Shown: positions 20,249 through 44,572 of the stretch, piece after piece | How the letters are laid out: the number at the start of each line of letters is the position of its first letter | Position numbering within the stretch: the first letter of the stretch is position 1 | From: Amphiscolops sp. MND2022 | Taxonomy: Eukaryota | Assembly: GCA_964187785.1 (NCBI GenBank) | Contig: OZ076409.1 | Span: 36,706,001 to 36,770,000 of the forward strand | Reading direction: 5' to 3' | Length of the DNA: 64,000 bases | Notes under the pieces: generated by a model | What the model was told of the DNA's origin: nothing | What the model saw: the letters and a program-made list of their open reading frames with translations, nothing else | Databases searched by the model: none | Translations under genes and position numbers: made by a program

Positions 20249-20362
20249 CTGAATAAATTGGAGCATACAGAGTAAGACTCTCATCTGAATGAGTTAGTGT
20301 GTATTTTAGATGTTTTGAGTTAGGAAGTTTTTGTTTTCATCACCGTCGTTGCCAGAAAAAAG

Positions 20363-21781: not shown

Positions 21782-21869
21782 CTACGATATAAAAACAAAA
21801 GTATTAAATCCTAGTAAATTTTTTTACAAGAATCTGGCATATTTGACATGCAAAATCGTGAAAGGCAAT

Positions 21870-24409: not shown

Positions 24410-25864
24410 ATGGCTGCGCAAAATTACTTGGCTTATCCAGACCTAGGCCGAGACCAATTCACAGGAACAGACCCAGATCAAGATCCTGAACAATTCATAC
24501 AGCTCATTGAAAAGAAGTTCCGGTTTTCTCACGGTGATACCCCGGCCAACGGACCAGCACTTGATGACTACAACTTCAGAAGAAAATCCTATTTTGCTAC
24601 ACTATTAAGAGGACCCGCAGCAGAGTGGTTCGAGACCAGCATCACAGACGCTAACACTTGGGCAGAAATCAGAGAGAGGTTCATAACGCGATTCGCAGAT
24701 GGCAGAAACAAATTTAGACACAGAATGGAAGCCGAACACGTCATCAGACGAGATGGAGAAGAAATAAAGAACTTCCTACACAGAATTAAAATAGTAGTCG
24801 GAAAAGGATGGCCAGATGATCTAGCCGGAGTCGCACAGAACAATAGAGACGCCGAAAGAGCAGCACAAGACAGACAAAGAAGACAGAGGTGCATTGACTA
24901 CTCACTGAGAGGCCTTCGACCCCCGAAACTGAGGGAAAAGGCACACGAATACTTAATGGATCATCCGAATGCAACCTGGGAGCAGTTCTCTCAAGCTGTA
25001 ATAAACAAAGACCTTTCTTACACAGTAACTACCTCTCTCACCGGTGGAGAATCACACGCAGACCCACTCATCCAAGAATTGCGAGAAGACATCAAAGGAA
25101 TCAAGCTACAAATCAAAGAACAGACGAACAACACTATCAATGCAATAGAGAAAACTGTTGATCCGAACGCAACAGGACGTAGAATGGCCACCAGGTTTTG
25201 CAGCTACTGCCGAACAAATGGGCATACGCCTAACTGGTGCAGAAAGAAGATGAGAGATGAAGAAATCAAGAAAGTTCAAAATGAATCCAACCCAGAGAGA
25301 CGAATAACTTTCACCAACGATTACAACAAAAGAACTGGACCTGGACATGGTTCTAGATTCCAAACTAGACTACCCGATTCAGAAATCAGAAAACATATGG
25401 CTGTGGCACATCAACTAGCACTTGCTGGAGCCATGCAGTCAAACCCTGCCCGGAACCAATATGATAGACCACAAAGAAGAAATTTCAACCCAGAACGCCG
25501 ACCTATGAATACAAGATTCAGTCCTGGTAACCAAAGATTTTCACAAGAAGGAAGAAGACCTTTTCTAAACAATTCTAACAATTCCAGAAGTGTTTCTCCT
25601 GGGCCCCAAAGAGCAAGATCTCCGTTCAGCTTCAACAGAGACCAGCCTAACTCCTTCAACCGCAACATACAGCCTCTTCCACCAAGGAATAACTCAGTCT
25701 TTAATAGACCACAAAACAGAAACGAAAGACCAAACACCCCCACTCAAACCTACGAACAAAGGTTCCCTAGAACTAACGACATGGGAAGACATAACACCGT
25801 ACAGTTTCTCGAAACAGATTACTCGGTGAACTCTGTCGCCGATATTCGCCCTTTAAACTATTAA
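24410..25864 (+). CDS. gag: Gag (484 aa)
   Basis: Capsid-like LRGPAAEWF...W.EIRERFITRF, a CCHC knuckle CSYCRTNGHTPNWC, and an R/N/P-rich C-terminus. Confidence 0.92.
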   Translation: MAAQNYLAYPDLGRDQFTGTDPDQDPEQFIQLIEKKFRFSHGDTPANGPALDDYNFRRKSYFATLLRGPAAEWFETSITDANTWAEIRERFITRFADGRNKFRHRMEAEHVIRRDGEEIKNFLHRIKIVVGKGWPDDLAGVAQNNRDAERAAQDRQRRQRCIDYSLRGLRPPKLREKAHEYLMDHPNATWEQFSQAVINKDLSYTVTTSLTGGESHADPLIQELREDIKGIKLQIKEQTNNTINAIEKTVDPNATGRRMATRFCSYCRTNGHTPNWCRKKMRDEEIKKVQNESNPERRITFTNDYNKRTGPGHGSRFQTRLPDSEIRKHMAVAHQLALAGAMQSNPARNQYDRPQRRNFNPERRPMNTRFSPGNQRFSQEGRRPFLNNSNNSRSVSPGPQRARSPFSFNRDQPNSFNRNIQPLPPRNNSVFNRPQNRNERPNTPTQTYEQRFPRTNDMGRHNTVQFLETDYSVNSVADIRPLNY

Positions 25865-28800
25865 GGTCTCCGAAAAACCGTAACAGCAGCACTGCCCCAC
25901 TAAAATTTAGTCTTAATCTTTATTATTTTGCTGCCGGAGACTCACAAAAAGATAGTGGCTTAGAAATCGAATTTCTACTAGACACTGGGGCAACATCTTC
26001 AATCATTAACTACAGGACCTTTAGAGAACTCTGTCAATTTCAACAAGACCTCGAACTCAGCAGAAGTAACAACACAACACGGAACTACTCTGGGCAGATC
26101 ATCCCTATGATGGGATACATCACCCTTAAACTCTACTACGATTCCGATGGACAACATAACTTCCCACTGACAGTCTGGATAACAGAGATGAAGACCCAAA
26201 ACCTCCTTGGAATGAACTTCTGTCAAGAACAAGTTAACAAAATACACTTTGATCTTCCTGGCATAGAACTCAAAAGACCTATAAATACTTTCTGCTATGG
26301 CAGTCTACAACTCAACAAATGTTACCCCTACGTATCACAAATACTCTCAGTCCGAATTCCTCACTCAATGTATATCGAACCAAAGACGACAAGATGTTAC
26401 AAATTTGCACCGGAAAACCCCAAGAACTCCTTTCCTCCCGGATCTACGTTCCTACCCAACAGAAAAGCAGTCTCTACAGGACTAAATTTTATAAATGTCC
26501 TTTGTACAAGATTTGAGAAGACTTTGCCAATCGTCATGGAAAATAACAAAAACCATACAATCACCCTAGTAAAAGGAACTATTGGATACTCTCTGCTCGA
26601 CGTATTAGACCAAGAAATTCCAAAATACCAAGTTAGAAACCCTACGGAACTCGCCTACGCTATCCTAAACGAAAACGAAGAATACAATGACTGTTTCCTG
26701 TTGCACTCCACCATCCCTTCACAAGATATGAACGATTGCATCAGAATAGAAGGAGGAAATTCTACTACAATCCTCAGCAGACCCGACTCCATCATGATCT
26801 TTGTCCCGGCAGATCTGAAGCCAGCCAAAGGCTTCTCGAAAGAAATCCTAACGAACATACCCTTGTTAAAAGAATCTTGCGCAAAACAGAAACCACTCAA
26901 AGGGGATACAATACCTTACTGGGACATGAATCTAAAACGATTCATATACGTCCTAATCACAAAAGCTAAATCAAAAGACAAAATCGACCCACAAATCTTA
27001 GTCCAAACGCTAGAGACTCTAAAAGCACACGCCAAAATGAATTGTATCAAGACCATTTCTATGTTACGAGAAGCGTCAGAACTAGAAGATTTCCAATGGC
27101 AAGATGTGACACAAATTATTCAAGATGTTTTTGCCTACTCGGAAATACAACTCCGAATTTATACAAGAAATGAACTAGACGTCTATGCTATGACTACGAG
27201 AGGAGACCCCGAATACGCGCTGGAAGACGAGATACAACAATTTTCCGAGCAATTTCACCTTAAACATAGAGAGCTGGAGACAGACTTTACGAGTGACGCA
27301 AAGTCTTGTCAACCACCCTGCGATGAGCAATTTAAAATCTTCAGGCAAAAAGAAGACAACGAAAGACTGATCGAGTATTACCTTCAGTACCAGAACAAAG
27401 AAGCAGTGCAATACATCAAAGAATTCGACTTTCGCTACTCAGACCTTACTGACGAGGAACTTGTGCTCCTAATAGACCAACTAATGGATGCGAGAGATGT
27501 ATACTCCCAACACAAATTCGACGTAGGAAAAACCAGACAGAAATTTAACATCAAACTCGAACCTGGAGCAATCCTGAAGAGACAGAGACCCAGCAAAGTA
27601 CCACTTCACCTAAGAGAAAAGTTAGAGAAGCTACTCACACAACTCAAAGACGCCGATATTATCAGAGAGATGGGCGATGACGACGAAATGGGATCCTTAT
27701 TCGTAAATCCTATTATACTACAACCAAAACACGACTATGTAAAACTGATCATAGACGCAAGATACCTAAATTCAGTGACGGATCTAACAAACTACTCCTG
27801 GCCCTTAGAACCGATCCAAACCATAATGACACTAATCAACGGGAACATCTTCTCAGTAAGTGATCTCTCCTGTGCATTTCACCAAGTCCCATTAGACGAG
27901 CCTACACAAAAACTTACAAGCTTCATCATAGGCGGGAAACAATACACCTTCACCAGAGGATTCTACGGACTTAAAGGGTTACCAAGCTTCTTTAGCCGAA
28001 TGATGACAATTCACTTCGAACCTCTCATTAAAAAGAAACAAGCAATCACCTACATAGACGACACGTTGATGCAAGCGAAAAGTAAACAAGAAATGTTCAC
28101 AGTGATTCAAGAATACCATAACCTACTACGGAAAGCGGGACTAAAAGCGGCACCTGACAAAACACTCTTCTTCTTGAGGAAAGTCAAGTTTTTGGGACAT
28201 GTGATTGCAGCAGAAGGAATACAACCCGTAGCTAAACGAGTAAGAGACCTACATAATCTCAAATCACCAAAAACCAAAACCGAAGTGAAAAGCTTCTTGG
28301 GAGCCTTAGGTTTCTACAGCTGCTACATCAAGAACCTTCACGTCGATAGTCGACCCTTTTACGAACTCACAAAAAAGGATACAAATTTCTGTTGGAACCA
28401 AGAACATGAAGACCTCTTCCAACAAATAAAGAAAAGAATCAGCGAAGACACAGTTCTTGCAGTACCTTCAACAAAATATCCCTTTCATATACACGTCGAC
28501 TCTTCCAACGTAGGGACAGGATGTATCCTCATACAACAATTTCCAGAAGGGAAACGGATCATTTCTTTCAATTCCAGAGTCTTCGCAAAAGAAGAACAAA
28601 AAATGTCTACTCTACATAGAGAACTATGTGGAATAGTCTCAGCATTACAAACCTACGAACACTATATCATTGGATCTCCCTTTCCAATTTACTTATATTG
28701 TGACCACAAACCAATTCTTTATCTCTGGGGACGAAAAGGACAAGTTTCACCGCGTTTCTTCAGGTACCAAGTAATAATCTCTAAATTCCCAAATCTCAAG

Positions 28801-31359
28801 ATAATTTGGACCCCAGGAAGCAATTTAGCCTTCCCTGATATACTCAGCAGAAACGTATCGATAGAAGAACACAAAAAACATCAACTCAGTCACAAAATCC
28901 TACCGAACGATATTCACTTCTTCGACGAGCATGGAACCCAAATACACTACAAAATAAAACACGAAGAAAACGAAGAAACGTCAAAAAACGATTTCTACCC
29001 CATCCTGTACGAAAAAGGAGATGAACGAAAAATTCTTCAACTACAAAACGATGGAAATAACTTCACAGTTAACAATATCTACGAGGAACCTAACCTGCCG
29101 AAAATAGAGTCAGCACAGAGTTGTCTCGACGCTGGAAGAGAACTAGGAAAATTTTCAGATCTAAAAATCAGATCCGGGACAAGGGATAGCACTTCCGATT
29201 CGTCTCAGAATACTTACAGCTCCATCAATAGCGATGCAGATGATGAAGCCTGCACAGACAACCAAAGTCATGAAGTAAACGAGACCAACTACGAGCTCAA
29301 CACTGAAGATCTCACCGCACGTAACACAGGTATTCCCGAAAATGCAAAGGCAATAGAACACCTCAGTCTACCTACAAATTCAACGGAAAAACACAAGACC
29401 CCAGCCCGAGAGCTCGTCAGTCAACTCGACAAAATATCAAAAGAAGTGGATCTAGACGTCACAACAATCTTACAAGAACAGATCAATGACCCGGTGCTCA
29501 GTGTGGTTCGACGATGGATACAAACCGGAAACAGGCCTACGCCAAAATCACCAGAATTACAACACTCTAAAGGACTCATGCGCTATTCCCAAGAGTTTGA
29601 TAGATTGACCATAGAAGAAAACGGAAACCTACTGTGCTACAATGAACCTACAGATAAGACGGAAGAAGAAAATCTTCGAATATGCTTACCACTCTCCTTA
29701 TTTCTCGCCTGCTTCCGATTAGGACACTACAACGACCTCGGAGGCCATATGGGAGCCGAGAAAACCTACCTAAATGCTAAAAGATTCTACTACTGGCCCG
29801 GGATGCACGACTGGATTTGTGCCCTCACACAAGATTGCGTTAGCTGCCAATCTAACAAATCCAAACAAAGAAGAAATTACGAAGTCCCACTGGAGGACTG
29901 TGAAACCGAGACCCAAGTATTCAGAACTGTTCATATCGATCACAAGGGACCACTCAACCCTCCCAGTCGTGGAAATTCACATTGCCTCCTCATCATCGAC
30001 GCATTTTCACGCTACTTGATGGCATACCCAGTTAGAGACACAGGTGCACAGTCAACAATCAACGCTATGGAAAAATGGATTATGCACTATGGGATACCGC
30101 AGTCTATCATACACGATAGAGGAACGGCTTTCGTAAACACTGAATTCGTCAATTGGACTAAAGAGTTAGGCATCACTCTCCGGCCAAGAACTGCACACTC
30201 ACCCTGGACTAACGGAAAAGTGGAAACCCAAAACCAACACATTGCAAGGTACTGGAGAAACTTCTTAAACGACTCAGGAAACAACTGGGCCCAACTAGCT
30301 GCTAAATTCGCATTTGCCCACAACACAAGCGTCAACTATACCACTGGAAAGACACCATACGAAATAGTCTTCTGCAATAAACCACAGATACCTATGAGTC
30401 TTAAGTTGGGTCTATACCGTAATAAAAACAAGAATTGCAGATCACAGTTCTGCAACGGACTGCCTCCTCACTGCCACAGCGAAAACCAAGTCAAAAACGA
30501 ACTGCTGAATGGACTATTAAGACCTCAACTATCTCAAAACCTGCTTGAAAGAGAGACCGCCTTCAAGAAAATCTATTCGTCCACTTACGAAAAATGCAGA
30601 AAACAAACAGCTAGATCTCATGCCTACAGAAACAGATTTAAACTAGGCAGCCATCTCAACATCGGACAAAAGGTCTTGTTAGAAAACCATCGGAAAGACC
30701 TCTCCAAAAGTCAAAAACTTCAACAACTGCGATTAGGACCATTTACAGTTACCAAGAGAATCACCAACACAACATACCAAATAAAAAACGATCAAAACCC
30801 CGAAAATCTCCGAACAGTCCATAGAAATCATTTAATAGAATACTTTCCCAAAGAGGAAACACTCCCCCCTCTTATAGAAGAATACACAACTCCCTACCGT
30901 GGAGACACGGATTTCTATAACAATTTTGTCAAAGGAAGAATAGAACGACTTAATGTTTCAGAACCACAGATACTCGGGGATCTCTGCATTTTACCAGTCC
31001 GAAACCAACAAAGACAGACCACCGCACAAAAACGAGTGAGAACTCCCCAGAGCACCGACTCTGGTATTATTTCCCCAGAAAATCACCGGTTGGGAACACC
31101 AACAACTCCGGATCAGCCTACTACATCCCGTCCTCCTGGTTCAACTACTCCTATCCAAACACTGACGCAACAAATAACACCCGAACCCTTGACTACCACA
31201 CCGGCTACTTCGACCAAATCTTTGACACCCCTACAAGAACTCAGGCGAGCGGTTGCAAGTCACGTCGAAAGAAATCCCCGCTATCAGCGAGCACAACCCA
31301 ACCAACCAGCACCACTGTCCATCCTTCGGCAAAAAACTCGCGTAGGCTACAAAGCCTAA
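25852..31359 (+). CDS. pol: Pol (protease, macrodomain, RT, RNase H, integrase), translated by -1 frameshift from gag
   Basis: The -1 frame is open from the slippery site T TTA AAC (25852). LLDTGA has D at 25981, upstream of the ORF-track ATG. Also YIDD (28051), RNase H HVDSS...CDHKP, integrase H-H-C-C, D-D-E and a GPF motif. Confidence 0.95.
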   Translation, partial: FKLLRSPKNRNSSTAPLKFSLNLYYFAAGDSQKDSGLEIEFLLDTGATSSIINYRTFRELCQFQQDLELSRSNNTTRNYSGQIIPMMGYITLKLYYDSDGQHNFPLTVWITEMKTQNLLGMNFCQEQVNKIHFDLPGIELKRPINTFCYGSLQLNKCYPYVSQILSVRIPHSMYIEPKTTRCYKFAPENPKNSFPPGSTFLPNRKAVSTGLNFINVLCTRFEKTLPIVMENNKNHTITLVKGTIGYSLLDVLDQEIPKYQVRNPTELAYAILNENEEYNDCFLLHSTIPSQDMNDCIRIEGGNSTTILSRPDSIMIFVPADLKPAKGFSKEILTNIPLLKESCAKQKPLKGDTIPYWDMNLKRFIYVLITKAKSKDKIDPQILVQTLETLKAHAKMNCIKTISMLREASELEDFQWQDVTQIIQDVFAYSEIQLRIYTRNELDVYAMTTRGDPEYALEDEIQQFSEQFHLKHRELETDFTSDAKSCQPPCDEQFKIFRQKEDNERLIEYYLQYQNKEAVQYIKEFDFRYSDLTDEELVLLIDQLMDARDVYSQHKFDVGKTRQKFNIKLEPGAILKRQRPSKVPLHLREKLEKLLTQLKDADIIREMGDDDEMGSLFVNPIILQPKHDYVKLIIDARYLNSVTDLTNYSWPLEPIQTIMTLINGNIFSVSDLSCAFHQVPLDEPTQKLTSFIIGGKQYTFTRGFYGLKGLPSFFSRMMTIHFEPLIKKKQAITYIDDTLMQAKSKQEMFTVIQEYHNLLRKAGLKAAPDKTLFFLRKVKFLGHVIAAEGIQPVAKRVRDLHNLKSPKTKTEVKSFLGALGFYSCYIKNLHVDSRPFYELTKKDTNFCWNQEHEDLFQQIKKRISEDTVLAVPSTKYPFHIHVDSSNVGTGCILIQQFPEGKRIISFNSRVFAKEEQKMSTLHRELCGIVSALQTYEHYIIGSPFPIYLYCDHKPILYLWGRKGQVSPRFFRYQVIISKFPNLKIIWTPGSNLAFPDILSRNVSIEEHKKHQLSHKILPNDIHFFDEHGTQIHYKIKHEENEETSKNDFYPILYEKGDERKILQLQNDGNNFTVNNIYEEPNLPKIESAQSCLDAGRELGKFSDLKIRSGTRDSTSDSSQNTYSSINSDADDEACTDNQSHEVNETNYELNTEDLTARNTGIPENAKAIEHLSLPTNSTEKHKTPARELVSQLDKISKEVDLDVTTILQEQINDPVLSVVRRWIQTGNRPTPKSPELQHSKGLMRYSQEFDRLTIEENGNLLCYNEPTDKTEEENLRICLPLSLFLACFRLGHYNDLGGHMGAEKTYLNAKRFYYWPGMHDWICALTQDCVSCQSNKSKQRRNYEVPLEDCETETQVFRTVHIDHKGPLNPPSRGNSHCLLIIDAFSRYLMAYPVRDTGAQSTINAMEKWIMHYGIPQSIIHDRGTAFVNTEFVNWTKELGITLRPRTAHSPWTNGKVETQNQHIARYWRNFLNDSGNNWAQLAAKFAFAHNTSVNYTTGKTPYEIVFCNKPQIPMSLKLGLYRNKNKNCRSQFCNGLPPHCHSENQVKNELLNGLLRPQLSQNLLERETAFKKIYSSTYEKCRKQTARSHAYRNRFKLGSHLNIGQKVLLENHRKDLSKSQKLQQLRLGPFTVTKRITNTTYQIKNDQNPENLRTVHRNHLIEYFPKEETLPPLIEEYTTPYRGDTDFYNNFVKGRIERLNVSEPQILGDLCILPVRNQQRQTTAQKRVRTPQSTDSGIISPENHRLGTPTTPDQPTTSRPPGSTTPIQTLTQQITPEPLTTTPATSTKSLTPLQELRRAVASHVERNPRYQRAQPNQPAPLSILRQKTRVGYKA

Positions 31360-31916: not shown

Positions 31917-32561
31917 CTACTCAATCTCCAGAAAACCGCCTTTCTCCGCTAGCCGCCTCAACTGGGAAGCCCGCTCCTCTCTGGTCCATAACTGGTACAG
32001 CCTCACCCACTGCCCCCTCTCGAAGCTGGTCAACTGGCAGAACCCATCTATATAGGCCCTCAGTTGACACAGCACTAATTCCCCTAGAGGGGACAGGAGG
32101 GTTCCCTCCCAACGGGCTCCCAGGTTGGCCCTCAAGAAACTCACAAAGGCATTTGGGATGGGCGCCCCAGATAAGGCAAACCCGGGAGACCCCCGCATGG
32201 AACGGGACAAAGAGGCCCAATTCTCTAACCGGTCCACGTCCCTCCGGTTAAAGAGGCTGAGAAAACTCTGCTCTCCGGGGTTCTCTAAAACCCCTTGAGC
32301 CACTACTGTGGAGGCCTGCAGGACTGGCCTGGGGGCCACAGCAGCAACAGGCGCAGAAGAGGAGGACGGCCCAGCCGCCAACAAAGAAGGCCCAGCCAAC
32401 GACAAAGAAGGCCCAGCGGCCGACGAAGGGCCCACAGACGACGAGGGAGCAGACGACGAGGGAGCAGACGACGAGGGAGCAGACGACGAAGCAGCAGACG
32501 CAACTGTTTCCTCATCGGTCGATGATTCCTCGTAGTAGTCAGACTCGTTGTTGTTACTCAT
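31917..32561 (-). CDS. Antisense accessory ORF (214 aa), acidic and Ser/Ala/Pro-rich N-terminus
   Basis: ATG-initiated. A TATA-like TTATAAAA lies about 65 nt upstream and ATTAAA about 125 nt downstream on the minus strand. It is a GC-rich island inside an A-rich element. Confidence 0.55.
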   Translation of the reverse strand: MSNNNESDYYEESSTDEETVASAASSSAPSSSAPSSSAPSSSVGPSSAAGPSLSLAGPSLLAAGPSSSSAPVAAVAPRPVLQASTVVAQGVLENPGEQSFLSLFNRRDVDRLENWASLSRSMRGSPGFALSGAPIPNAFVSFLRANLGARWEGTLLSPLGELVLCQLRAYIDGFCQLTSFERGQWVRLYQLWTREERASQLRRLAEKGGFLEIE

Positions 32562-32849
32562 TCTGAAGATATCTTAGCTTTTTTTGTCCTAAAGTAATGC
32601 ATGCTTAAACAAATATTTATCTCTTATTTTATAACAATATCTTATGGTTATTTGCCTAAACCGCCTACGATAATCCTACAATAGATAGAATATATCTTTT
32701 GAAACTTCTCTGTACTCAACCACGATCTTCTACGAGATCGTGTTTATACTTTTCAAACACCTCTGTCCTCCAACGCAATGAAATAACTGATGATTACATT
32801 CTCAGATTTGCCATGTTTGAACAACAGTGAACACTGAAGTATCTCACAG

Positions 32850-33071
32850 ATGATCATAATCTTCAAAATCGACAACCGTCTTTCACAAATCACAGATATC
32901 CAGAAGGAACCCTCAACGCAGAACATTATCGTACAAGCATACGCAATAGCAGAAGAAGAAAGTGAAACCTACACTTGTGTGCCAGCATCACCTATCTACC
33001 CTCTACTGGAGAGCTTGCTATATAACAACACCCCTACTGAAGTCGTCACAAGAGCCAAGTCAGTCATTTAA
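32850..33071 (+). CDS. Accessory ORF B (73 aa)
   Basis: Its stop overlaps the next start (TAATG). Pattern is similar to ORFs A, C and D. Confidence 0.5.
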   Translation: MIIIFKIDNRLSQITDIQKEPSTQNIIVQAYAIAEEESETYTCVPASPIYPLLESLLYNNTPTEVVTRAKSVI

Positions 33072-33466
33072 TGTCCTCTCCCGCAGTCGCCGTGTTCCGC
33101 GGAAATAATTACTACTTCCACACACAGTTTCAACCTCCTGTTCCTTGGACTCCCATACAACTCAAGGGCCAATACGAAATACAGTCAATCTTCTACGAGA
33201 TCACAACCTCTGCGATTCAAGTGCGTATACTCACACCAGAAGACAAAGAAGCTCTAGTCCTCTTCCCTATTCACTTCGGATCCAAGGAATACGCCTACTT
33301 ATTCCTTTCGTTCAAGCAATACATCCTCCAACACCCCGCAGTTCTCAAAGACAAGGCTTTCGACGACTTGGTTTATTTTATGGACATCACTCTCACCTCC
33401 AACCCCTTCGAAGAAGAAGTTAGAATCAAATACCTTCACAGCCTAGTCGACACTTATGATGTTTAA
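33071..33466 (+). CDS. Accessory ORF C (131 aa)
   Basis: Start is coupled to ORF B by TAATG; overlaps ORF D by 11 nt. Confidence 0.62.
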   Translation: MSSPAVAVFRGNNYYFHTQFQPPVPWTPIQLKGQYEIQSIFYEITTSAIQVRILTPEDKEALVLFPIHFGSKEYAYLFLSFKQYILQHPAVLKDKAFDDLVYFMDITLTSNPFEEEVRIKYLHSLVDTYDV

Positions 33467-33800
33467 GATTCAACTCAAGTTTCTCTGGCGCCACCCTGAA
33501 ACAAATACACTTCTCGAAATTCTCTCTATCGCTTGGAAAGAAAACGCACCTTCACTACAAATCGAACTCCATAGCCTCCGACCACAAAACCCAGGACATT
33601 GGCTCATCCCAGTTGACACCAACTCCCAAGAGGCTACTGATCTCTCACTCGCACTAAAGGAATATAGGCAAATTGCCTATCTCGACCACATCCACCCTCT
33701 AACACTGTTCCTCCTCAACAAGCTCATTGACTTCCTCGAATTGAGAAGACGAAACAAAACCTCTCCCAGTCTACAATCAATCCGTGACAACTACAATTGA
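33456..33800 (+). CDS. Accessory ORF D (114 aa)
   Basis: ATG overlaps the end of ORF C; paralog-like pattern. Confidence 0.62.
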   Translation: MMFKIQLKFLWRHPETNTLLEILSIAWKENAPSLQIELHSLRPQNPGHWLIPVDTNSQEATDLSLALKEYRQIAYLDHIHPLTLFLLNKLIDFLELRRRNKTSPSLQSIRDNYN

Positions 33801-33845
33801 ACTTTCAGCAATGGTTGAAGTTAGTCTCTTTTAACTTCCTATTTT

Positions 33846-34300
33846 GGCACTTTTTAACAGTAGTGAGGTTACTACTATAAAATTTTAACCTCCGCTTAGT
33901 GCTAGTGCCCACTAAGCTGCCGGTTTGATATTACGGCTTGCCTTTTTACGGCCTTATAACGGATCCTCAATAATAAAATATACTAAAGCTTCAATAATTA
34001 ACCTACTCTTCGGCACTTTTTTAACAGTAGTGAGGTTACTACTATAAAATTTTAACCTCCGCTTAGTGCTAGTGCCCACTAAGCTGTCGGTTTGATATTA
34101 CGACTTGCCTTTTTACGGCCTTACTACGAATCCTCCTCTCTGGAACACACACCTATTTCCCTGAAATAATAAAATACTTATCGTTCCCCTCGGCACGTTT
34201 TAACAGTAGTGAGGTTACTACTATAAAATTTTAACCTCCGCTTAGTGTTGTGCCAGCTAAGCTGCCGGTTTGATATTACGGCTTGCCTCTTTACGGTCTC
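33846..34300 (+). repeat. Three tandem copies of a structured element of about 110 nt upstream of env
   Basis: Copies start at 33846, 34012 and 34192. Stems are conserved, with a compensatory base change in copy 2. Confidence 0.9.
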
Positions 34301-34377: not shown

Positions 34378-36525
34378 ATGAAATTATTTTTCTTACTCTT
34401 CTTATGCGCCAATTTCGCGCCCGTTGTGAACTCACAACGTTCAACGCCAAACCTCGCTAGCGTTGCTAAAAAATTGCGAGTAACTCATTTCGACTGCGGC
34501 GAAATGACACAAAATAAGCTCTACGCCTTGAATCAAGTAGAGCAATGCAATGTGGCCCCGGAAAACTTAGAAGTAAGTCGTGCTAGCGTGACGTTATACA
34601 CTAAACACTTTCGTCGCACTATCAACGCTACTATGTGCCGTGTGAAACACCAGAGTGAAGAATGGCATTGTGGTCATAATGACCACTCCAGTATGTCAAT
34701 CCTACACAACGGAATCACCAGCGATATTTCCTTGTCACCCGAAACCTGTAAGGCCATGGGCGAAGGCAAAGAAGTCATGATCCATGGACAACCCCTCAAA
34801 TTTAAGAAAGGAGTCAAACAAGTACAGACGAGAAACGCCAAATACGGAAAAAGTTGGGATGGAGTACGTGACCCTGATACCCGTAATGAGTGCAAGACAG
34901 GCGGATGGATTAAACGCGAAACCTTCGAATCTCATATCCAAGACGTCGAATTATCAGTCAAAACCAGAGACGGGAAAATCCTCACACCCTTCCAGATGGT
35001 TCTCCCCTGCCCCCTGGAACAACTCGGCTGCGAAACCACGTCATTGGACCCGTACGCCTATACATGGGCAGAGCCAGATAACTGCGTGCTCGCAGTCCAC
35101 AGAAAAGAAATAGTGAATATGATCAAACATGGCTCTAACTACTATATAGTTAGCGGCAACGACTCCACTACCAAGTTCCTATTCGAAATATACAACAGGC
35201 CACAGAAATACTGCAACAAACCCGATGATGTCTACCCTACCAATTACGAATCCCTCTACGTTTCGACCCAATTTGGTGGCTTCGACATGACTTCTGGCAG
35301 ACGACTCGGCATCTCCATGGGAGAAACCTCCAAACTTCAATATTACTCACCCAACGATGGTTCTGGTAATGGCAGACTCCACCTCTTCAGAGGCCCCAGC
35401 GACTCCAACCCCAACACACCACATTATCTCAACATGGATTACGAACTCCACCAAGGAACCAAGTTAGATTATCTCTTCTTTGAGAGCACCCGCTTACTCG
35501 AAGCTTCAGAGATCCAGCTATTGAAAGCTCAATGTGAGCAAGAACGAACACAAATCCTTACCATCCTGATGTTATCCATGGAAAACCCACGACTCGCCGG
35601 ATACATGCTCACGGGAAATCGCTCGATGTTCCTGAACACAGATGGTAGCCTCGCATGGCTCTACCACTGCCCGGAATCCCACTCACCTCTTCACACGATG
35701 AACCAATGCTACGACCGCATACCAATCTTCTACAAGGGAGTGGTCGCCTTTGTAGACCCCATAACCCGACAAACATATCCTAACGCGAACGTACAAAACT
35801 GCACAGATCGTATTAAGAACCTCTTCCAACTGGACATGGAAGACAAGGACTCCTGGTTCACCCTTACACCTTCACCCGAACATCGGGACCGGCCTGCTAT
35901 CTTCGGACCCAAAGACATCCAGCCAATGATTACCAGATCTTTCCCAGGATCACAGGACGCGGGAATGTACACTCCCAAGCAACTCTCCGAGTTTTGGGAC
36001 AACATCCTCATCAGCGCCGCATCACGTAATGCCCTCCAGAAGTTCTCAAGAGAGCTCATCATACCCTCCATGGCCCACAGCGGACCAGAATCCTTCGCGT
36101 ATTACGCACCTCGTACAGATTTCTATGTCGACGGAATGATTTCACCCGACTACTTTAAAAATCAGTTCCTCGAAACATTCGGAAGTATATCTTATGTACT
36201 AGAACTCTGCGGAGCGTACTTTGGCGCTTTCCTTTTTATCAAGTTCGTCATAGATATCACGGTACTAGTCTTCCGCTACTTCGAACTTCGTCACCTTACA
36301 GGTAACACACTGAGCTTCACTAAAACCTTGCTCAGTGCTTCGTACAACCTTTTCTTTACCTCTGTTTTAACTTCCGTATTTACCCCGCGGGCCCCTTTCG
36401 AGGATAGCATTGAAGACAAAAGGGTAAAAACAGAAGACGAAGAAAAAGGAGTAGAACTCCAAATCCTAAAACAAAAAGAGGAATCACTATATCCCTCGGT
36501 ACAGAGCTTTGTTGCTCCAATATGA
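34378..36525 (+). CDS. env: Envelope glycoprotein (715 aa), chuvirus-G/herpes-gB-like class III fusogen candidate
   Basis: Signal peptide and a Cys-rich ectodomain (HFDC, C-x8-HCG, CEQER...P..A..L, CYDRIPI...FVDPITR). N-glycosylation sequons are present, with a C-terminal TM at about 36196-36273. Confidence 0.85.
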   Translation: MKLFFLLFLCANFAPVVNSQRSTPNLASVAKKLRVTHFDCGEMTQNKLYALNQVEQCNVAPENLEVSRASVTLYTKHFRRTINATMCRVKHQSEEWHCGHNDHSSMSILHNGITSDISLSPETCKAMGEGKEVMIHGQPLKFKKGVKQVQTRNAKYGKSWDGVRDPDTRNECKTGGWIKRETFESHIQDVELSVKTRDGKILTPFQMVLPCPLEQLGCETTSLDPYAYTWAEPDNCVLAVHRKEIVNMIKHGSNYYIVSGNDSTTKFLFEIYNRPQKYCNKPDDVYPTNYESLYVSTQFGGFDMTSGRRLGISMGETSKLQYYSPNDGSGNGRLHLFRGPSDSNPNTPHYLNMDYELHQGTKLDYLFFESTRLLEASEIQLLKAQCEQERTQILTILMLSMENPRLAGYMLTGNRSMFLNTDGSLAWLYHCPESHSPLHTMNQCYDRIPIFYKGVVAFVDPITRQTYPNANVQNCTDRIKNLFQLDMEDKDSWFTLTPSPEHRDRPAIFGPKDIQPMITRSFPGSQDAGMYTPKQLSEFWDNILISAASRNALQKFSRELIIPSMAHSGPESFAYYAPRTDFYVDGMISPDYFKNQFLETFGSISYVLELCGAYFGAFLFIKFVIDITVLVFRYFELRHLTGNTLSFTKTLLSASYNLFFTSVLTSVFTPRAPFEDSIEDKRVKTEDEEKGVELQILKQKEESLYPSVQSFVAPI

Positions 36526-36556: not shown

Positions 36557-37159
36557 AATTTAGAACCCTTATTCGACCTCCCAAACCTGGACGACGACAT
36601 CCCTAACTCTATCTTAGAAGACGACTTGCAGATAGAACCCTTATCACCTTCTGACCTGCTGTCACCTGCTTCTCCCACAACTATTACCTTTCTCCTAGAT
36701 CCCCCAGACTCAACAGTTCCTTCTCCGATTCCAAGCGCCCTAACAACAACACCCTCTCCAACGACATCACTACAACTCCCCTTTCCGCTGTCATTTACAG
36801 AAGAGGTAGCGCCTATCCCATCAACTCAACATCCACCTCGATCGCCCCAACATCCACCCCGCTTCGGCGGAAAAGACATAAGACGGGCACTACCCAGGAA
36901 ACACCAACAACAATGGAATGACAAAATAACAGATGACACGCCACTGAAGAAACAACACAAGCGGGAGTACTTCACTAAACGAGCAAGACACGTTAAGAAG
37001 CCCAGATTCAACACAGAGTTGAAATACACTCTCCTCCCACAATTCTCAACTTGGAAAATCGTTTTCTGGGATAACAAGAGACAAGAGTACACCATAGAGA
37101 ACCCAGCCCTAAAGGGACAAAGACTAACGGTCCCCCTAAGAGCCATCTCAGCACAATGA
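36557..37159 (+). CDS. Pro/Ser/Thr-rich ORF with basic C-terminal half, no ATG (possibly spliced)
   Basis: The frame is open from 36557, right after tttacgtttag (acceptor-like). Its stop overlaps the TRAF ORF start (ATGA). Confidence 0.45.
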   Translation, partial: NLEPLFDLPNLDDDIPNSILEDDLQIEPLSPSDLLSPASPTTITFLLDPPDSTVPSPIPSALTTTPSPTTSLQLPFPLSFTEEVAPIPSTQHPPRSPQHPPRFGGKDIRRALPRKHQQQWNDKITDDTPLKKQHKREYFTKRARHVKKPRFNTELKYTLLPQFSTWKIVFWDNKRQEYTIENPALKGQRLTVPLRAISAQ

Positions 37160-38058
37160 ATCGGAGGCTAAACCCAGACGCTATCCCCTTCATCCCAAAA
37201 AGCACTCCTTCCTTCCCCAAAGCTAACGACTGGCCACCTCTATCCAGGACAGAGAATAAAGATGACCTCGAGACACTCGAGGGAATCAAAAGATTGAACA
37301 AATGGATCGCTGAACTGGAAGTCTCAACTAGCCCACAAAGTGAAAAGGTAACCCCGATCCTAAGGAAATCGTTTCCCATAACCGACATAAAACAGCCTAG
37401 AACAAAGTTTGCTAGTGAAATGAAACAACTCCAAAACTTGGCAGAAGAAACGCGGACTAAATGTAATCACTTGGAACTCACAATATCCAATCTACAAGCG
37501 ACAATCAAGTTTCAAGGCGCCCTACTCAACAAAACCAACGTATTAGACGCAAGAAGTGGTGAACCCATCCTTTGGCACATACCCGCTTTTTCCACACTAT
37601 ACAGAAAAGCAAAGACCTCCCCGAATGATGCGTTGAACAACATCAAAAATAGCTTCACTAGCCCTATCTACACTACCCACCTAACCGGCTGCAAAATATC
37701 CCTCAGACTATTCCCTTATGGCGCCAACATCTTCCGCGGAACCCATTCCTCAATTTCTTGTGATCTACACCCCAGCGACTTCACTCTCCCACGAACGTGG
37801 CCTTTCGAGCAACAATTGATCGTCTCAATCATAGACCAAAAAGACAAGAACAACAAATGGTCCATCTCCTTTCCCTATCCCTCCAAAACAGAAGAGTATG
37901 AAGACCCGCACAAGAACGACTACACACTCCCAGGACTGATGAGAGAAGACTTCATCGCGCACACAAAACTCCTGGTAAACTTTAGAGAAGCCTTCCTAAA
38001 CAATGACTCCGTCATAATCCAAATTCAATTTGACAGACCCCTTTTTTCTAAACCCTAG
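37156..38058 (+). CDS. PAM2 - coiled coil - TRAF/MATH domain protein (300 aa)
   Basis: LNPDAIPFIP (PAM2), a heptad segment, then ILWHI...SPIYT...GCKISLRLFPYG...GTH.S...WPF.Q.....IIDQ...FL.NDSVIIQI, matching the TRAF-C consensus. No RING or zinc fingers. Confidence 0.88.
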   Translation: MNRRLNPDAIPFIPKSTPSFPKANDWPPLSRTENKDDLETLEGIKRLNKWIAELEVSTSPQSEKVTPILRKSFPITDIKQPRTKFASEMKQLQNLAEETRTKCNHLELTISNLQATIKFQGALLNKTNVLDARSGEPILWHIPAFSTLYRKAKTSPNDALNNIKNSFTSPIYTTHLTGCKISLRLFPYGANIFRGTHSSISCDLHPSDFTLPRTWPFEQQLIVSIIDQKDKNNKWSISFPYPSKTEEYEDPHKNDYTLPGLMREDFIAHTKLLVNFREAFLNNDSVIIQIQFDRPLFSKP

Positions 38059-38160: not shown

Positions 38161-38172
38161 AGGGGGGTGAGC
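38161..38172 (+). promoter_or_regulatory. Polypurine tract
   Basis: AGGGGGGTGAGC lies immediately before the 3' LTR. Confidence 0.75.
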
Positions 38173-39677
38173 TGTCGCGCTATGACTAACGCTCTAACGA
38201 ATCACCAAAAGGCGCTTTCTATTATAAAAAATAACACGTGCAAAGAGAAACATAAAACTTGAACTAACGTTGTGTGGAGAGTGGAAAGTTGAAGTAAATA
38301 TGGCGGCGGCCATAACGCGGCGGCCTCGAAGTGGAGTAATAAGTAATGGAATACTACGGGAAAGGAATTGCACTAGTGAAAATTTCTATTTCTTACCGCG
38401 GATATTTGAATTTTAAAGCTGAGCTACCATTGGTAGCATGCAACACATGCCGGCCAGGCACTTCAACAGCTGTGCTGAACTGTTTTTATACCGCGCGCAC
38501 AGGCTGGAGATTCATTCATTCCCGCCGGACGGCTGAGCTCAACTTACAGCTCTCTCTCTCTCTCTCTTCAACTTATCAATTCCTCTACTTCTCTTACACT
38601 TACTCTCCCCCTTCTCCCCCTCGACTCTTATTCTCCACTTTCTCTTTGCTTACATTGCACTTGTCTTATCTCAGACTTATAAAGTCAAACTTTCCTCCTT
38701 TTCTCCCTTTCCTCAAGCAAAAACTTATCTTTTCCTTTTCTCTATTCCCCAACAGAATTTTCTATCTTAGAAAATTCTCTTCAATTCAACTTGGTCTCCA
38801 GTTGGGTGAGTCGAAAATATCTTAGATTTTTTCTTTTAGAGGAGATTTTTTACTCTCCCTCCTTCTAACTAAACTCTATCTTAGAATAATTCCGCTGATT
38901 CAATTCTGCGGATTCTATCTTATAATAATTCCGCTGATTTAATTCTGCGGTTGTTAAAATTCTATCTTAGAATAATTCTGCTGATTTAATTCTGCGGTTT
39001 TCCCCTGTTAACTTATTTGTCTTTACCATTCCCATATTCAAAAAAAAAAAAAAAGATGCTATTCCTAAAGTCTTAATGCTATTCCTAAAACAAAGGAGTA
39101 GAGACTATAAAATTAAATAGTGTTGTCTAAGTTATTACAACACCAAAACTGGATTTTTCGTAAAAAAACTTTCTTCGAACTAAAGGAAATTACTATGAAT
39201 TTCCTTCGATGCTAAATTTCTTCATCAATTTATGCTCTAAATTGAAATAGCTAAGATATTACTTCGGTTGCTGGCAAATAAATTTGGTGAGTTTGACTGA
39301 ATACTTGTAAACAGTTGAATAAAAACTGATATGTCTGAAGTTCAACTCTTTTATGTAATTCAACAAGTTTGCTAACATATGTTTTTTTTTCTATAGTTCA
39401 GAGAGCTCATTTACATTCACTGCCTTGCACTTACTCACGCAAGTTCCTTTGTTCGCACGTACACGCAAGGCACTTTCTTTTCGGTATTACAAAAAAGAAA
39501 TTAAGTTATTGAGACTTTTCTACTTGTTCTACTTCAATAAAACAACAGTTGTTGGAAAAGCATTTTGCCAAATGTTGTAACAGCTGGGCTGACTAATACG
39601 GATAACAAATTTGGAATTCCCCTCTAAAAGAGGAAACTGTAAAATAGCAGAACTGAAATTTATCCATGCGTGCGACA
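38173..39677 (+). repeat. 3' LTR (1505 bp)
   Basis: Direct repeat of 21870-23373, followed by the TSD CAAT. Confidence 0.97.
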
Positions 39678-39831
39678 CAATGTATTTTAGAAAACTTCTG
39701 ATAGAAATCGTGCAAGATCTAGCGAGTACAAATCGTTTCATTTGCATTGAATGGTTTTTAAAAAGATCCAAAACGAGCATTATCAAAACATGTTATCCAA
39801 TGTGTTATCGAAAACAATATTGCGTCATTAC

Positions 39832-40087
39832 CACGACTGGATTCTCGTCTCGTATGTCTGGAATCGTGTATGACCCATCTCTGGGGGTGACCCATTCAAC
39901 CTGGATGACCTCATTAGAATCAGACTCGGCTGCACACCTGAGCTCCAGGGTCTGACCTATGAGCACATTAAGACTGGAGTGTCCAGGGTAGAACTCAGTG
40001 ATGACCGGGATCACACAGGTCAGGTCATCTTCACTCATACCTGCCAACTTCTCACCCTTCAGGTCACTTGGGTACAAACATGTGACC
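39832..40087 (-). CDS. LRR-Ig-FN3 receptor gene, end of LRRCT and first half of Ig
   Basis: Encodes VTCLYPSDLKG...LTC...GQTLELRCAA...VEWVTP, with ttccag and gtaatg boundaries. Confidence 0.88.
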
Positions 40088-41398
40088 CTGGAAAGAAATG
40101 AAACTCTGTAGTTTCTGTATCTGCATTTTCCAAACAGGCACCGAGGTGAAAGAAATTAGATGTAAAGTCTCTGTGCATTTTTCGTGTATTTCGCACTATG
40201 CTACAAATGTAGTTAAAAATCACTCAAAAGACTTGTGGGTCTGAGCTACATGTGATCAACCTCTCTGAATCCATTCAAGTATCAGTAGACCAGCACTTTA
40301 GAAAATGCATCTAACTCTGAATCCTTCGAAAACCAAACTCTTACTATAGTAATATGATAACCCATATTAAAGCTACGCCGATTCATCTTCATGCCGTTTG
40401 CCTTTTTTGCACGGATTCCTTATGGGAAACAAAAAATCCTTATGGGAAACAAAAAATTATCTTTCAGACTCGTTTTTTTTTCTAAATTTTCGGCGTTCCG
40501 ATTTCTTACCCATAAGATAGAGCTTTTTCCACAGAAGTCAACTAGATAGACTCATTGAATATGTTTTGGCGGAGATGATTGAACATTTGAAAAAGAGTGC
40601 CTGGGTTAGAAATAGCTTCAAAAGTCTCAAAATAATCCAAAACAAGTTTTGGCCGTTTTACACAATTTTGTTATATATACAATTTGAAACTTGAATATCC
40701 ACGTGTTGGACCTGTGGATTTGAACGACAGAACAATGTAGCTGTTCAAGTATAGCATTCGGACAAATTTCTGACGACGAAATTTCTGGCGACGAAATTTC
40801 CGCCTCCCTTTGAAATGATTCGTGTGAGTGAATTTCGATTTAATTTTTCAGGCCAACCTGTTGTTTTTCACACGGAAAACGCTGAGACAAGAAAAAAGGC
40901 CCTTATGAAACGACTTTCCAGAGAATTAGGTTAGATTGACCAATTTTCAAACTAGTTCAAAGAATGTTGCCAAGACAAAAAGCGAAAGCACAAAAACTTT
41001 TCACCTGCTTCAAGATATTCAAGAAACTAAACACCTAGCTACTAAATGTGCTTTCCTAATGCAGTTGTTAATGCGTATGAAGATGAAAAAGGAATTAGAT
41101 GAACCTTTTTGATCAGATTTTTTAGTGGGTTGTTTGTTCAAATACATTCATTTTTCGAAATTACCTTGAAATCAACATAATCCCATGCTATTCATAAGTT
41201 ATAGAACAAATTATCTTCCAAGCTCTGATTCGAGATTCGAATAGATTCAAGTTTCAAGATTGGAATTACAAAGATTGGAAATCGAATAGATTAAGGACTG
41301 AAAACCCACTGTTTAGATTTTTAGATTATTCACAATTTTAACCTTCCTTTCTGAGAGACAAGTTTATTCGATACGATTAATGAAGTATTTAGTCTAAC

Positions 41399-41667
41399 CC
41401 ATCGGCAGCCATGTGCACACTGGATATATAAATCAATAAAGGTAAAATTGCGCAATCGCAGTTTAGGGGGTTGTCATCTAGCCAGTTCCAGTGAGCACCT
41501 GCGTACGAGAAGTGGAATTGAGAGAGACTGCTGGCCACTGATTGGAGAACATTTTCGGGCACTGTGCTGATCTGATTGGATGATAGATCCAACAGACTCA
41601 GGGATTGTAGACTGCTAAATACTGCAAAGTCCAAAGTCTCGATCTTGTTGCCGCGGAATCTTGCCTC
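41399..41667 (-). CDS. LRR-Ig-FN3 receptor gene, LRR and LRRCT exon
   Basis: Encodes LQSLSLLDLSSNQISTVP...LDDNPLNCDC. Phases fit the neighbouring exons. Confidence 0.88.
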
Positions 41668-42022
41668 CTGGAAAATAGATTTGTCATCAAAAATGCTCGA
41701 GCGCCCAATTTGAAAAGTTGAAATCTAATTGGTTGAAAAAGCCTAAATTGATGATAAAATTATGAGACAGAAAACTTTAGCCTTAGAGAGTTTGATTCGC
41801 AATGAAATTTGTGAAACCTCAGGAATCATTTTAATAAAAAGATGGAGACTCAAGCTGCTCCGTTTTATTATTTGTTTGAAAAGTGAGAAAAGTACATTAT
41901 ATGTGAACAATTTTTTTTCCGTAGAGATATATGTTGTATTTTAATTTTAGTGTAATTAATATTGTTTTTCTTATTTTTTCTTTCATACGTCTGTATATAC
42001 GATTAATATGCGTTTTCATATA

Positions 42023-42254
42023 CAGTTTAACTTCAGTATTACACACCTCGTTGGGAGAAAACGCTCAAGTACGTTACCGTTTAACTTCAGTATTACACAC
42101 CTCGTTGGGAGAAAACGCTCAAGTACGTTATTCTGAAGTGTGTGTTATAAGCGAAAAAGACCAAATGATGAAAACCAAACACGGGGGCACAAAATATGTG
42201 CGTTATTCTGAAGGTTACACTATAGTGCACGTGTGTGATACTGAAGTTAAACTG
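42023..42254. mobile_element. Tc1/mariner-type MITE
   Basis: TIR of about 24 bp, CAGTTTAACTTCAGTAT(T/C)ACACAC, with TA on both sides and an internal tandem duplication of about 54 bp. Confidence 0.85.
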
Positions 42255-42272
42255 TATCAAACTTGTAAGTAC

Positions 42273-42634
42273 CTTCAGCTTCGAATTATGTTTGAAATAC
42301 GATGACTTTAATATCTTCAAATTGTTATCTGAGAAATCGAGGTACTGCAAATCCTTCAGGTAGCCCAAGTTAGGAAACGTTGTTAAAGAGTTTCCAGCTA
42401 GGTTCAGGATTTCAATGGCTCTGTTCATCTTGAAGATCTCGAAGGGGATTCCTAGCATGAAATTGTTGCTAAGATCAAGTTTCTGAATATCAGTGTTCGT
42501 TTCCAGGGATTCTTCGTGGATAACCAGGTTGGCCATTTTCACCACATTTTCCAGGTACAAATACCTTAAACTGGGAAACCCCCCGAAGAAGTTTGGACCA
42601 ATCACATTGATTGGGTTTCCACTCATGTCTAACA
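42273..42634 (-). CDS. LRR-Ig-FN3 receptor gene, LRR exon
   Basis: Repeated LxxLxLxxN motifs (LDMSGN, LDLSNN, LNLAGN, LDFSDN), with AG/GT ends. Confidence 0.9.
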
Positions 42635-42834
42635 CTGAAACAAACTTTCGATTATAAACAAGAGCTCATTATTCCATTCATAATTGCTTTTTTTCTAGCG
42701 TTTGTCGAAGTATTTTAACTTTTTCAAACTATGGAGTCTCAGCTGCGGTTACAATATGGAATATTTGAAAACAAAATAGCCTGAAACTCACAGCTTTTCT
42801 TTTTAGTTATGTTTTCTCGGCCAATCTACTGTTT

Positions 42835-43341
42835 TTACTCGGCGCCATTTAGTAGAAAATGAGTCCGACTCTTACAGTGGGCGATTTTTTTGGACGCGCG
42901 TGGTCCACTTTTTTGTTCATTTGTTCAACAACAAAAACTTGAACGACGGATGTTCAAAATATACTCGAAACGTCAGAAACTCATCCAAAACAAAAAAAAC
43001 GACATCCAGAACCTCAAAAACACTAAGGATCTCTCCTTTGGCTATCTTGGTGTTTTTCATTTGGATTTTTTTCGGCACTATGAGACTTTTTGCAACAAAA
43101 TGGATGCTAAAAAACCCAAAGGGTCCTCCCTTTTACATTTTTCGTCACTGTGAAACTGTTCAAAATTCTCAATTTTCGGTTTTCTTCCAAAAACTTTTAT
43201 TGTCTCCAAAGGGTCCCCCTTCATTTTTTCCAAATTTTGCCACAAACTGGTTTCACAAAGCCCAAACTTTTATAGTTTTACAAACGTTGCGCTTTTTGAG
43301 CCTTAGATATAGTCCCGACTTTGGCCGTTCCCTGCTTGTTT
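42835..43341 (+). mobile_element. Helentron/HINE-like repeat copy
   Basis: Same family as 4298-4858 and 61901-62400, in opposite orientation to the latter. Confidence 0.6.
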
Positions 43342-43587
43342 TGTCGTATCTACAGAGCAAACGTGAGTCTTTAGAAATTCAACTATTAGAGATGATAGGA
43401 AAGTATCCAAATACGTTTTAAATTATTCAATCGGAAACGTTTCAGTGAGGTCCATGATGTCACGAACAAATAAAATCTCAATTTTAATACCTTGCTTCAG
43501 TTTGTTTTCAAAGTTAAATGTCAGAAGCTCGAATTTTAAAAAAAATTCACAAAGTATACCACTTGAATTAGCAGAAGTCGTTCAAAC

Positions 43588-43821
43588 CTTCAACTTTGGA
43601 ATGGAACTTCATGGAGTTAGTTCCGGGTGCCTTCTTCAATAAGTTGTGATTGAGGTACAAATGGGACAGGTTGGATATTGTGGTGAAACTGTCATCTTCC
43701 ACTATTGATATTTTGTTAGACTGCAGAAACAGGTTCTTGATTTCTGACACCCCACTCAAGTAGGTCTCCTTGAACGTCTCCAGCTGATTCGAACTCAAAT
43801 CAAGGGTATCCAAAGAGAGTC
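43588..43821 (-). CDS. LRR-Ig-FN3 receptor gene, LRR exon
   Basis: Encodes LDLSSNQL, LFLQSNKI and LYLNHNLL; phase 1/1. Confidence 0.88.
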
Positions 43822-44247
43822 CTTTTGACAGAAATTCGAAAACATTACGTCATCTTCGTGGCGAATAATTTTTTATTTAAATTTGATTATTTTCACACGA
43901 GGTGGATCTCATGAGGACTGAATGAACTTCCAAAAAACAAACCGTATTTTCGTTGGACTTAGAAAAGAATTTTTAAAAATGTTTGAAAAACTAATTGAAC
44001 AAGGTTTACTTGTAAATTGAAGAAGGTTCTTCTGATGATCCGTTTTCGACCATTTTCAAGAATTCGAGAACGAATTATACCTATAGTAAGCATTAATGCG
44101 CACACAGTAAGACTTGAAACTTCAGCGCCCGTAATCAGTACCACAAAATCAGCTTGACGTAGTCTTGAATGGAACATTAACAGATCATTACTAGCACGCA
44201 GCCTGAATGTCATCTACATTAGTCACTTGTCATTTTCTAATTCCTGC

Positions 44248-44572
44248 CTTTGAAACAACCAGTCCCGATTTTGGCGATTCTGTTGTTACTCAAGTCAATC
44301 TTGGTCAACTTCTTGTTGTTTCTGAACACGTTGTCTCCCAAAGTGAGGCTTTGATGTTTCTGGCATTTGAAAACCTGAAGTTCTTTCAGGTCTGCGAAGT
44401 TATCTTCTGACATGAATGTTATCAAAGTTTCTTCCATGCTCAAGAATTTTGTCCATGGGGGAATGTTTTTTGGGAAAAACGTGATTTCTTTGCCTTGACA
44501 TTCCACAACTCCTTTTGTTTTTGAACAGTGACATTTTTCAGGGCAAGCACGCGTCTGGATGATAAGAGTAAC
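44248..44572 (-). CDS. LRR-Ig-FN3 receptor gene (LRRN/LRFN/LRIT-type architecture), LRRNT exon; the signal-peptide exon upstream was not located
   Basis: Encodes CLPEKCHCS...VECQGKEITFFPKNIP (LRRNT) followed by LRRs. ttttag acceptor; the donor appears to be GC. Confidence 0.82.

Follow-up and report, generated by a model that had tools for sequence, protein, structure and literature searches.

A TRAF-type gene of probable host origin with a putative PAM2 motif in an env-bearing gypsy-type retroelement of Amphiscolops sp.

We found that the last ORF (37156-38058, plus strand) of a young, intact, 17.8-kb gypsy-type LTR element with env encodes a putative PAM2 motif, a coiled coil and a TRAF-type MATH domain, as indicated by its frame, Pfam matches and predicted fold. 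The element lies in a 64-kb stretch of DNA of Amphiscolops sp. MND2022 (contig OZ076409.1), hereafter the window, whose numbering is used below. We propose tentatively, with close to an even chance of being right, that the product is a host-derived, selected and RING-less adaptor with a TRAF fold, which would dock onto the MLLE domain of PABP via PAM2 and act on mRNA-protein complexes for the benefit of the element.

Results

The TRAF gene is the last ORF of an env-bearing gypsy-type element

The element is bounded by two LTRs, the 5' LTR at 21870-23373 and, as defined by LTR comparison, the 3' LTR at 38173-39677, which are 99.6% identical, with a single substitution and two small gaps between them. 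All features are on the plus strand unless stated otherwise. The LTR ends are TG..CA, a CAAT target-site duplication is present at 21866-21869 and 39678-39681, and a polypurine tract (38161-38171) precedes the 3' LTR. The gag frame (24410-25864) matched PF03732 with an E-value of 1e-4, below the cut-off, and the family matches in pol (25795-31359) followed the protease-RT-RNase H-integrase order of Ty3/gypsy. The env gene (34378-36525) encodes a Monjiviricetes-type fusion glycoprotein (PF24664, E 5e-31). This set of features is that of a Ty3/gypsy element with env. No tRNA gene was detected within the window.

Invertebrate LTR elements usually consist of gag-pol(-env) with few accessory genes. 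The present element has five ORFs beyond gag-pol-env, and its build resembles that of a complex retrovirus. An antisense accessory ORF (31917-32573, minus strand) had no family match and is retained in related families. Two overlapping small accessory ORFs (33041-33466 and 33447-33800, spanning 33041-33800) had no above-threshold family match and are conserved in branch A, the branch of the window gene, and in A2. Three tandem repeats of ~170 nt lie between pol and env (33831-34299).

The frame that follows env, orfP (36557-37159), comprises 200 codons without an ATG, and its stop overlaps the start of the TRAF gene as ATGA. It opened after a splice-acceptor-like TTTAG in all branch-A copies examined, in which an ATG was likewise absent. 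An acidic, proline-rich start is followed by a basic patch and a C-terminal domain of ~70 aa, which is conserved in all element lineages (roughly 40-55%). There was no Pfam match to orfP, its atlas matches were all under 0.9, and a genome search with it returned only family-B-like copies. The frame looks like the second exon of a regulator. The ATGA overlap was present at nine of nine branch A/A2 junctions examined, and a short gap takes its place in families B and C. Note that the ATGA overlap and PAM2 were both absent from the first-pass annotation of this DNA.

The TRAF ORF itself extends from the ATG at 37156 to a TAG ending at 38058 as a single unbroken, intronless frame of 300 aa, and its end is 114 nt from the 3' LTR. 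The MATH domain (aa ~137-292; 37564-38031) was identified by two Pfam profiles, PF22486 (E 8.9e-12, aa 139-291) and PF21355 (E 1.3e-10), both past the cut-off. TRAF5 and TRAF4 were the top sequence matches in the PDB (~2e-7). An AF2 model (mean pLDDT 72) combined a beta-sandwich with a helix at aa 82-125, and Foldseek with this model ranked TRAF5/4/3 first (E 3.5e-12 to 1e-11). In both the sequence and the fold searches, TRAF structures outranked the MATH domains of USP7 and meprin by far. The helix (37399-37530) had a pLDDT of 85-92 across residues 91-120 and a heptad pattern with hydrophobic residues at 10 of 13 a/d positions, and is thus the TRAF-N-equivalent coiled coil, located immediately N-terminal of TRAF-C as in the TRAF family. 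The Pfam scan of the 300-aa ORF detected no RING or zinc-finger family, and we therefore regard the product as a TRAF-derived protein rather than a full TRAF ligase. The first-pass annotation, which had read here an intronless, RING-less ORF of this length with a coiled coil and a MATH/TRAF-C domain just before the polypurine tract, was borne out in each of these respects.

A host LRR-Ig-FN3 gene on the minus strand (19980-20336 and 39808-44572) apparently holds the element in one of its introns; the flanking exons encode LRR and a weak Ig domain on one side and FN3 on the other. A second, unrelated gypsy-type element at 10233-16049 has direct repeats of ~209 nt and broken frames, and no env was seen in it.

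Copies of the TRAF gene and selection

When the genome was searched for the TRAF ORF, 150 of 493 candidates were scored. At least 19 copies had 99-100% identity, followed by families at ~73, 66, 61, 37 and 22-28%. All 19 near-identical copies examined (19/19) had an unbroken frame, along with the ATGA overlap, purine tract and LTR start. Neither of the two objections named in the first-pass annotation was therefore borne out: these sister copies are intact, and a MATH fold is predicted. Further, among 20 diverged loci, the TRAF gene was located behind env and orfP in 14 and behind deleted env fragments in one; one locus was an orphan fragment and four belonged to family D. A search with PF21355 yielded nine loci, namely seven env-orfP-TRAF cassettes and two host genes. 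In viral contigs, none of 599 pattern matches was confirmed as a relative.

Many older TRAF copies were broken, as is usual for element families, and the identity of young copies alone is silent on selection; both points would suit a neutral passenger that is simply copied with the element. When the window was compared with five branch-A families, dN/dS of the ORF as a whole was 0.13-0.16 and that of MATH 0.10-0.14 in five of five comparisons, values that are rough because dS (1.3-2.1) is near saturation. All 12 comparisons with measurable dS gave 0.05-0.19, and env in the branch-A comparisons gave 0.03-0.04. Further, deeply diverged lineages still carry open TRAF frames. These ratios indicate that the TRAF ORF is under purifying selection between families. 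They largely refute a neutral passenger, which we consider very improbable.

The synonymous divergence of the TRAF ORF among branch-A families (1.3-2.1) exceeded that of env (0.6-0.7) two- to threefold, suggesting that 3' cassettes have been exchanged between elements.

In branches A and A2, the gene has a fixed position and is coupled by ATGA to the preceding orfP; these features, together with its location behind env and orfP in 14/20 and 7/9 of the sampled loci, are what one would expect if it served the element internally. In such a role, MATH would find its partner within the element (the Env tail, Gag or the product of orfP), and PAM2 would tie the protein to polyadenylated genomic RNA, thereby aiding localisation or packaging. 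However, MATH diverged much faster than RT or Env: the between-family figures for MATH, RT and Env were 77/96/96%, 67/98/95%, 38/84/75% and 24/80/57%. A host-facing accessory gene fits this divergence better, and we regard an element-internal role as improbable.

Relationship to host TRAF genes

The genome contains two TRAF paralogs with GT-AG introns, L072 (G000:C3:90.87 Mb, single-copy) and L110 (G000:C3:25.70 Mb). Maximum-likelihood trees grouped all of the element genes with these two paralogs (support 99/96, subject to a long-branch warning, and 98/99 in a 34-row tree), and two other host TRAFs and TRAFs from outside fell outside this group. An intron near the end of MATH is present in both host paralogs and in family D but is missing from the retroelement genes of A, B and C. 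Because the trees join the element genes to intron-containing paralogs and the retroelement genes lack the common intron, a host TRAF origin of the element genes is well supported. This agrees with the ancestry that had been proposed, namely from the host's own TRAFs. The earlier claim went further, to a host mRNA that was captured and kept. Host ancestry, intron loss and selection (dN/dS 0.13-0.16) speak for it; the mRNA route, however, is not proven by intron loss, since any retroelement strips introns, and the loss fits passage through RNA in general. The free tree did not join families A, B and C, and the AU test did not reject a single clade (p 0.20).

A coiled-coil motif is common to the two host paralogs and families B and D. 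MATH of L072 was ~50% identical to that of family B, and the window MATH was ~29% identical to that of its nearest host paralog. Relatives of the host-paralog subfamily were also found in other datasets (P0093, P0098, P0103 and P0132). A separate host TRAF gene on C10 encodes a RING and a zinc finger. Upstream of both paralogs, in a transposon-filled region, a zinc-finger pattern scan and tblastn without a RING-bearing query revealed one zinc-finger-like remnant, recognized by eye without Pfam support, and no RING exon. The donor TRAF may thus have been RING-less already before capture.

Family D belongs to the same host TRAF subfamily and has kept the last intron. It is located in the middle of a foldback element of ~18 kb with arms of at least 5 kb (L054, L034 and L076 at G000:C1:103.76-103.78 Mb, and also L033, L035 and L040), with ~25 copies among the matches listed. 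The arms carry ORFs, one of them with an HUH-like HYHVL motif recognized by eye, and no gag, pol or env. A PC4-like identity considered for a family-D ORF had no Pfam support and was rejected. Upstream of one host paralog, the locus L093 (G000:C3:90.85-90.86 Mb) contains a Polinton-like element, recognized by eye from ORFs for a family-B DNA polymerase, an ATPase and an integrase-like protein, and a BEL/Pao-like element.

Receptor-binding residues of the MATH domain

Hot spots 1-3 of TRAF2 comprise F410, F447, F456 and C469; S453-S455; and R393 and Y395 (PMC6125299). We mapped these residues through alignments of TRAF3/5/1, leaving L432 out of the map. Branch A retained only the equivalents of R393 and F447, and therefore lacks the residue set of a TRAF1/2/3/5-type receptor binder. 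Y395 was changed to F, F410 to S or C, the serine triad to T-E-E (variable), F456 to Y, Q or H, and C469 to R or K (L in an alternative register). Both host paralogs, which form an atypical subfamily without the serine triad, kept F410 and F456, and families B and C kept the F456 equivalent. Further, only 4 of 22 positions were invariant in the loop at aa 241-262, where pLDDT was <50, versus 56/104 and 22/31 in the MATH segments on either side.

TRAF4 and TRAF6 are described as binding receptors without the serine triad (PMC6125299). Given this precedent and the retention of R393 and F447, some binding of receptor peptides by the branch-A MATH may remain, judging from the alignment. The loss of most hot spots, together with the presence of PAM2, makes a plain receptor-tail decoy doubtful in this branch. 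The first-pass annotation had inferred a decoy of innate immune or apoptotic signalling. What holds of this is a host-derived TRAF under selection; a decoy of TNFR/TLR receptor tails fares poorly, as the equivalents of F410, S453-S455, F456 and C469 are changed and variable.

A wider form of the same idea is a plain dominant-negative TRAF, in which the coiled coil and MATH would fill receptor tails or poison host TRAF trimers and thereby damp immune or death signalling, PAM2 being secondary. Such use of a truncated TRAF has a precedent in TRAF2(241-501), from which the N-terminal RING region is missing (PMC2196258). The host has possible targets, namely the TRAF gene with RING and zinc finger and eight TIR-domain matches, and in families B and C PAM2 is absent and the equivalent of F456 retained. 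In branch A, however, the groove residues are lost and variable, the ~29% MATH identity to the nearest host paralog weakens the case for heterotrimer formation, a conserved PAM2 would be superfluous for a pure decoy, and the donor subfamily may itself be RING-less. A genome search for NF-kB/RHD gave no match, and the control query likewise matched nowhere. We consider a dominant-negative TRAF rather unlikely for the window gene; a decoy is more plausible for families B and C, which it fits better.

A putative PAM2 motif at the N-terminus

Paip1/2, eRF3, Tob and ataxin-2 are among the MLLE-binding PAM2 proteins. The canonical PAM2 is LNxxAxEFxP, and LARP4B is a further protein with this motif (PMC7356810). 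In the N-terminal 25 aa of the TRAF ORF, the sole Pfam match was PAM2 (PF07145) at aa 5-14 (LNPDAIPFIP; 37168-37197), with 17.2 bits and an E-value of 0.004, below the cut-off of 20 bits. All of the anchors L5, N6, A9, F12 and P14 are present, and position 11 is P rather than E. Sister families scored 21.3 and 21.2 bits, such that two of four family representatives were past the cut-off. The segment was of low confidence in the AF2 model and is probably disordered.

The five anchors were invariant in the six branch-A sequences compared (6/6), as opposed to only three of the next 20 positions. The A2 family, with a MATH only 38% identical, retains PAM2, and one of two A2 copies lacks the key Phe. 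When sequences were shuffled, the pattern arose anywhere in 98 of 200,000 shuffles and within the first 20 aa in 7 of 200,000. Among 201 database proteins examined, 12 had the pattern: 11 of branch A/A2 and P0077, whose best identity in this genome was only 44%. The genomic context of the P0077 group comes from one metagenome contig, L140 (one of three loci was informative), which is 85% identical to P0077 and carries env (60%), orfP (42%) and then a PAM2-TRAF gene. This TRAF copy is broken, with no start codon and one internal stop, and its PAM2 scored 15.8 bits. Since the P0077/L140 group joins branch A (97/94), PAM2 was probably gained once in this clade. Families B, C and D lack the motif, as do those exons of the host paralogs that we located.

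Two host proteins contain an MLLE domain; one is PABP-like and the other also has HECT. Complex prediction of the PABP-like MLLE with aa 1-34 lent weak support to binding, with a score of 0.36 versus 0.01 for the best control; the runs agreed in at least 79% of contacts, and the partner pLDDT was at least 54. In calibration, the mark was reached by 51 solved pairs (of 78) and 2 mismatched ones (of 108); scores of 0.60 or less among passes came from only 5 of the 78 solved pairs but from all four passing mismatches, and a score in the range of 0.36 is thus wrong more often than right unless the prior is good. Further, PAM2-MLLE structures have already been solved, so this pass may reflect likeness to those complexes.

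The MLLE-HECT protein opens another route. PAM2 motifs can bind the MLLE of UBR5, and the element protein could act as a degrader adaptor that recruits this HECT ligase in place of a RING, with MATH selecting a host restriction factor for ubiquitination. The strong conservation of the MATH core and C-terminal strand, but not of the classic groove, is in line with such a substrate-selecting surface. Yet PABP is the commoner partner of PAM2, and we give the degrader a slim chance.

Discussion

Our preferred reading remains an adaptor that docks onto PABP. The anchors of PAM2, their conservation, the selection on the ORF and the decay of the groove suggest this; the sub-threshold Pfam score in the window and the A2 copy without Phe argue against it. 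Further, families B and C thrive without PAM2, and the motif is therefore not needed for the basic value of the gene. In this mechanism, the TRAF ORF would be translated from a spliced 3' message by stop-restart at the ATGA behind orfP. The coiled coil would form a trimer as in TRAFs, so that PABP would be offered three copies of PAM2. With its remodelled surface, MATH might then recruit a novel partner, from the host or from the element, to polyadenylated RNA, or drag host TRAF paralogs there. The likely gain would be that element RNA is shielded from translational shut-off or decay driven by stress or immunity.

Planarian giant gypsy-like elements, Burro/GYPSM1, are described as encoding a mononegavirus-type env and a MATH_TRAF_C domain, with a proposed interference with apoptosis and ubiquitination (PMC6431247). 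Burro exceeds 30 kb, its MATH is part of a polyprotein of ~4,900 aa or of an upstream ORF and is accompanied by BIR, BCL2-like and ankyrin domains, and in Burro of Dugesia tigrina MATH_TRAF_C is on a separate accessory ORF (PMC6431247). The company of BIR and BCL2-like domains favours the dominant-negative alternative. None of the BIR, BCL2-like and ankyrin domains was found in the 10 ORFs scanned here. Both are gypsy-like LTR elements with env and MATH_TRAF_C, and the presence of TRAF in such an element is thus not new. As far as Burro's description goes, the present element is set apart by its 17.8-kb size, env as a separate ORF, the TRAF gene as the last ORF, PAM2 and host paralogs in the same genome.

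Other known proteins share parts of this design. TRAF1 is naturally RING-less and keeps its receptor hot spots almost fully (PMC6125299). Both TRAF1 and truncated TRAF2 have a coiled coil and TRAF-C without RING, as does the element protein; in contrast to TRAF1, the latter lacks most hot spots, is element-borne and bears PAM2. PAM2 proteins (PMC7356810) similarly carry LNxxAxxFxP in a terminus predicted to be disordered, but they are host proteins without a TRAF domain. In the literature searched, Burro was the only precedent found, and no PAM2-MATH protein encoded by an element or a virus was found. Nor did we come across a fusion of PAM2 with TRAF, a 3' cassette of this kind, the host subfamily traced here or the second mobile carrier; most subscription journals and Repbase reports were outside the scope of this search.

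Taken as a whole, the findings could describe a captured host TRAF paralog that was rebuilt, its groove discarded and PAM2 added. Its trimer would then be a three-armed clamp on MLLE proteins, either holding PABP on element RNA or borrowing UBR5 in place of the RING, and the same subfamily would also have been taken by an unrelated foldback DNA element. We judge this fuller account possible, at somewhat below an even chance.

For the TRAF gene, a host ancestor can be traced, several element lineages have diverged, a second mobile carrier exists and the binding surfaces have changed measurably; the gene points to the host pathway that these elements target. With it, what was observed for Burro is extended to an element that is built differently. 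PAM2 is a more distinctive and testable feature than the decoy reading, being a motif of 10 residues with two host MLLE domains as candidate partners. If the proposal is true, this would be the first PAM2 adaptor encoded by a mobile element, joining TRAF signalling to mRNA control. Further, as the foldback element also took a member of it, the host TRAF subfamily would be a repeated target in the conflict between host and elements.
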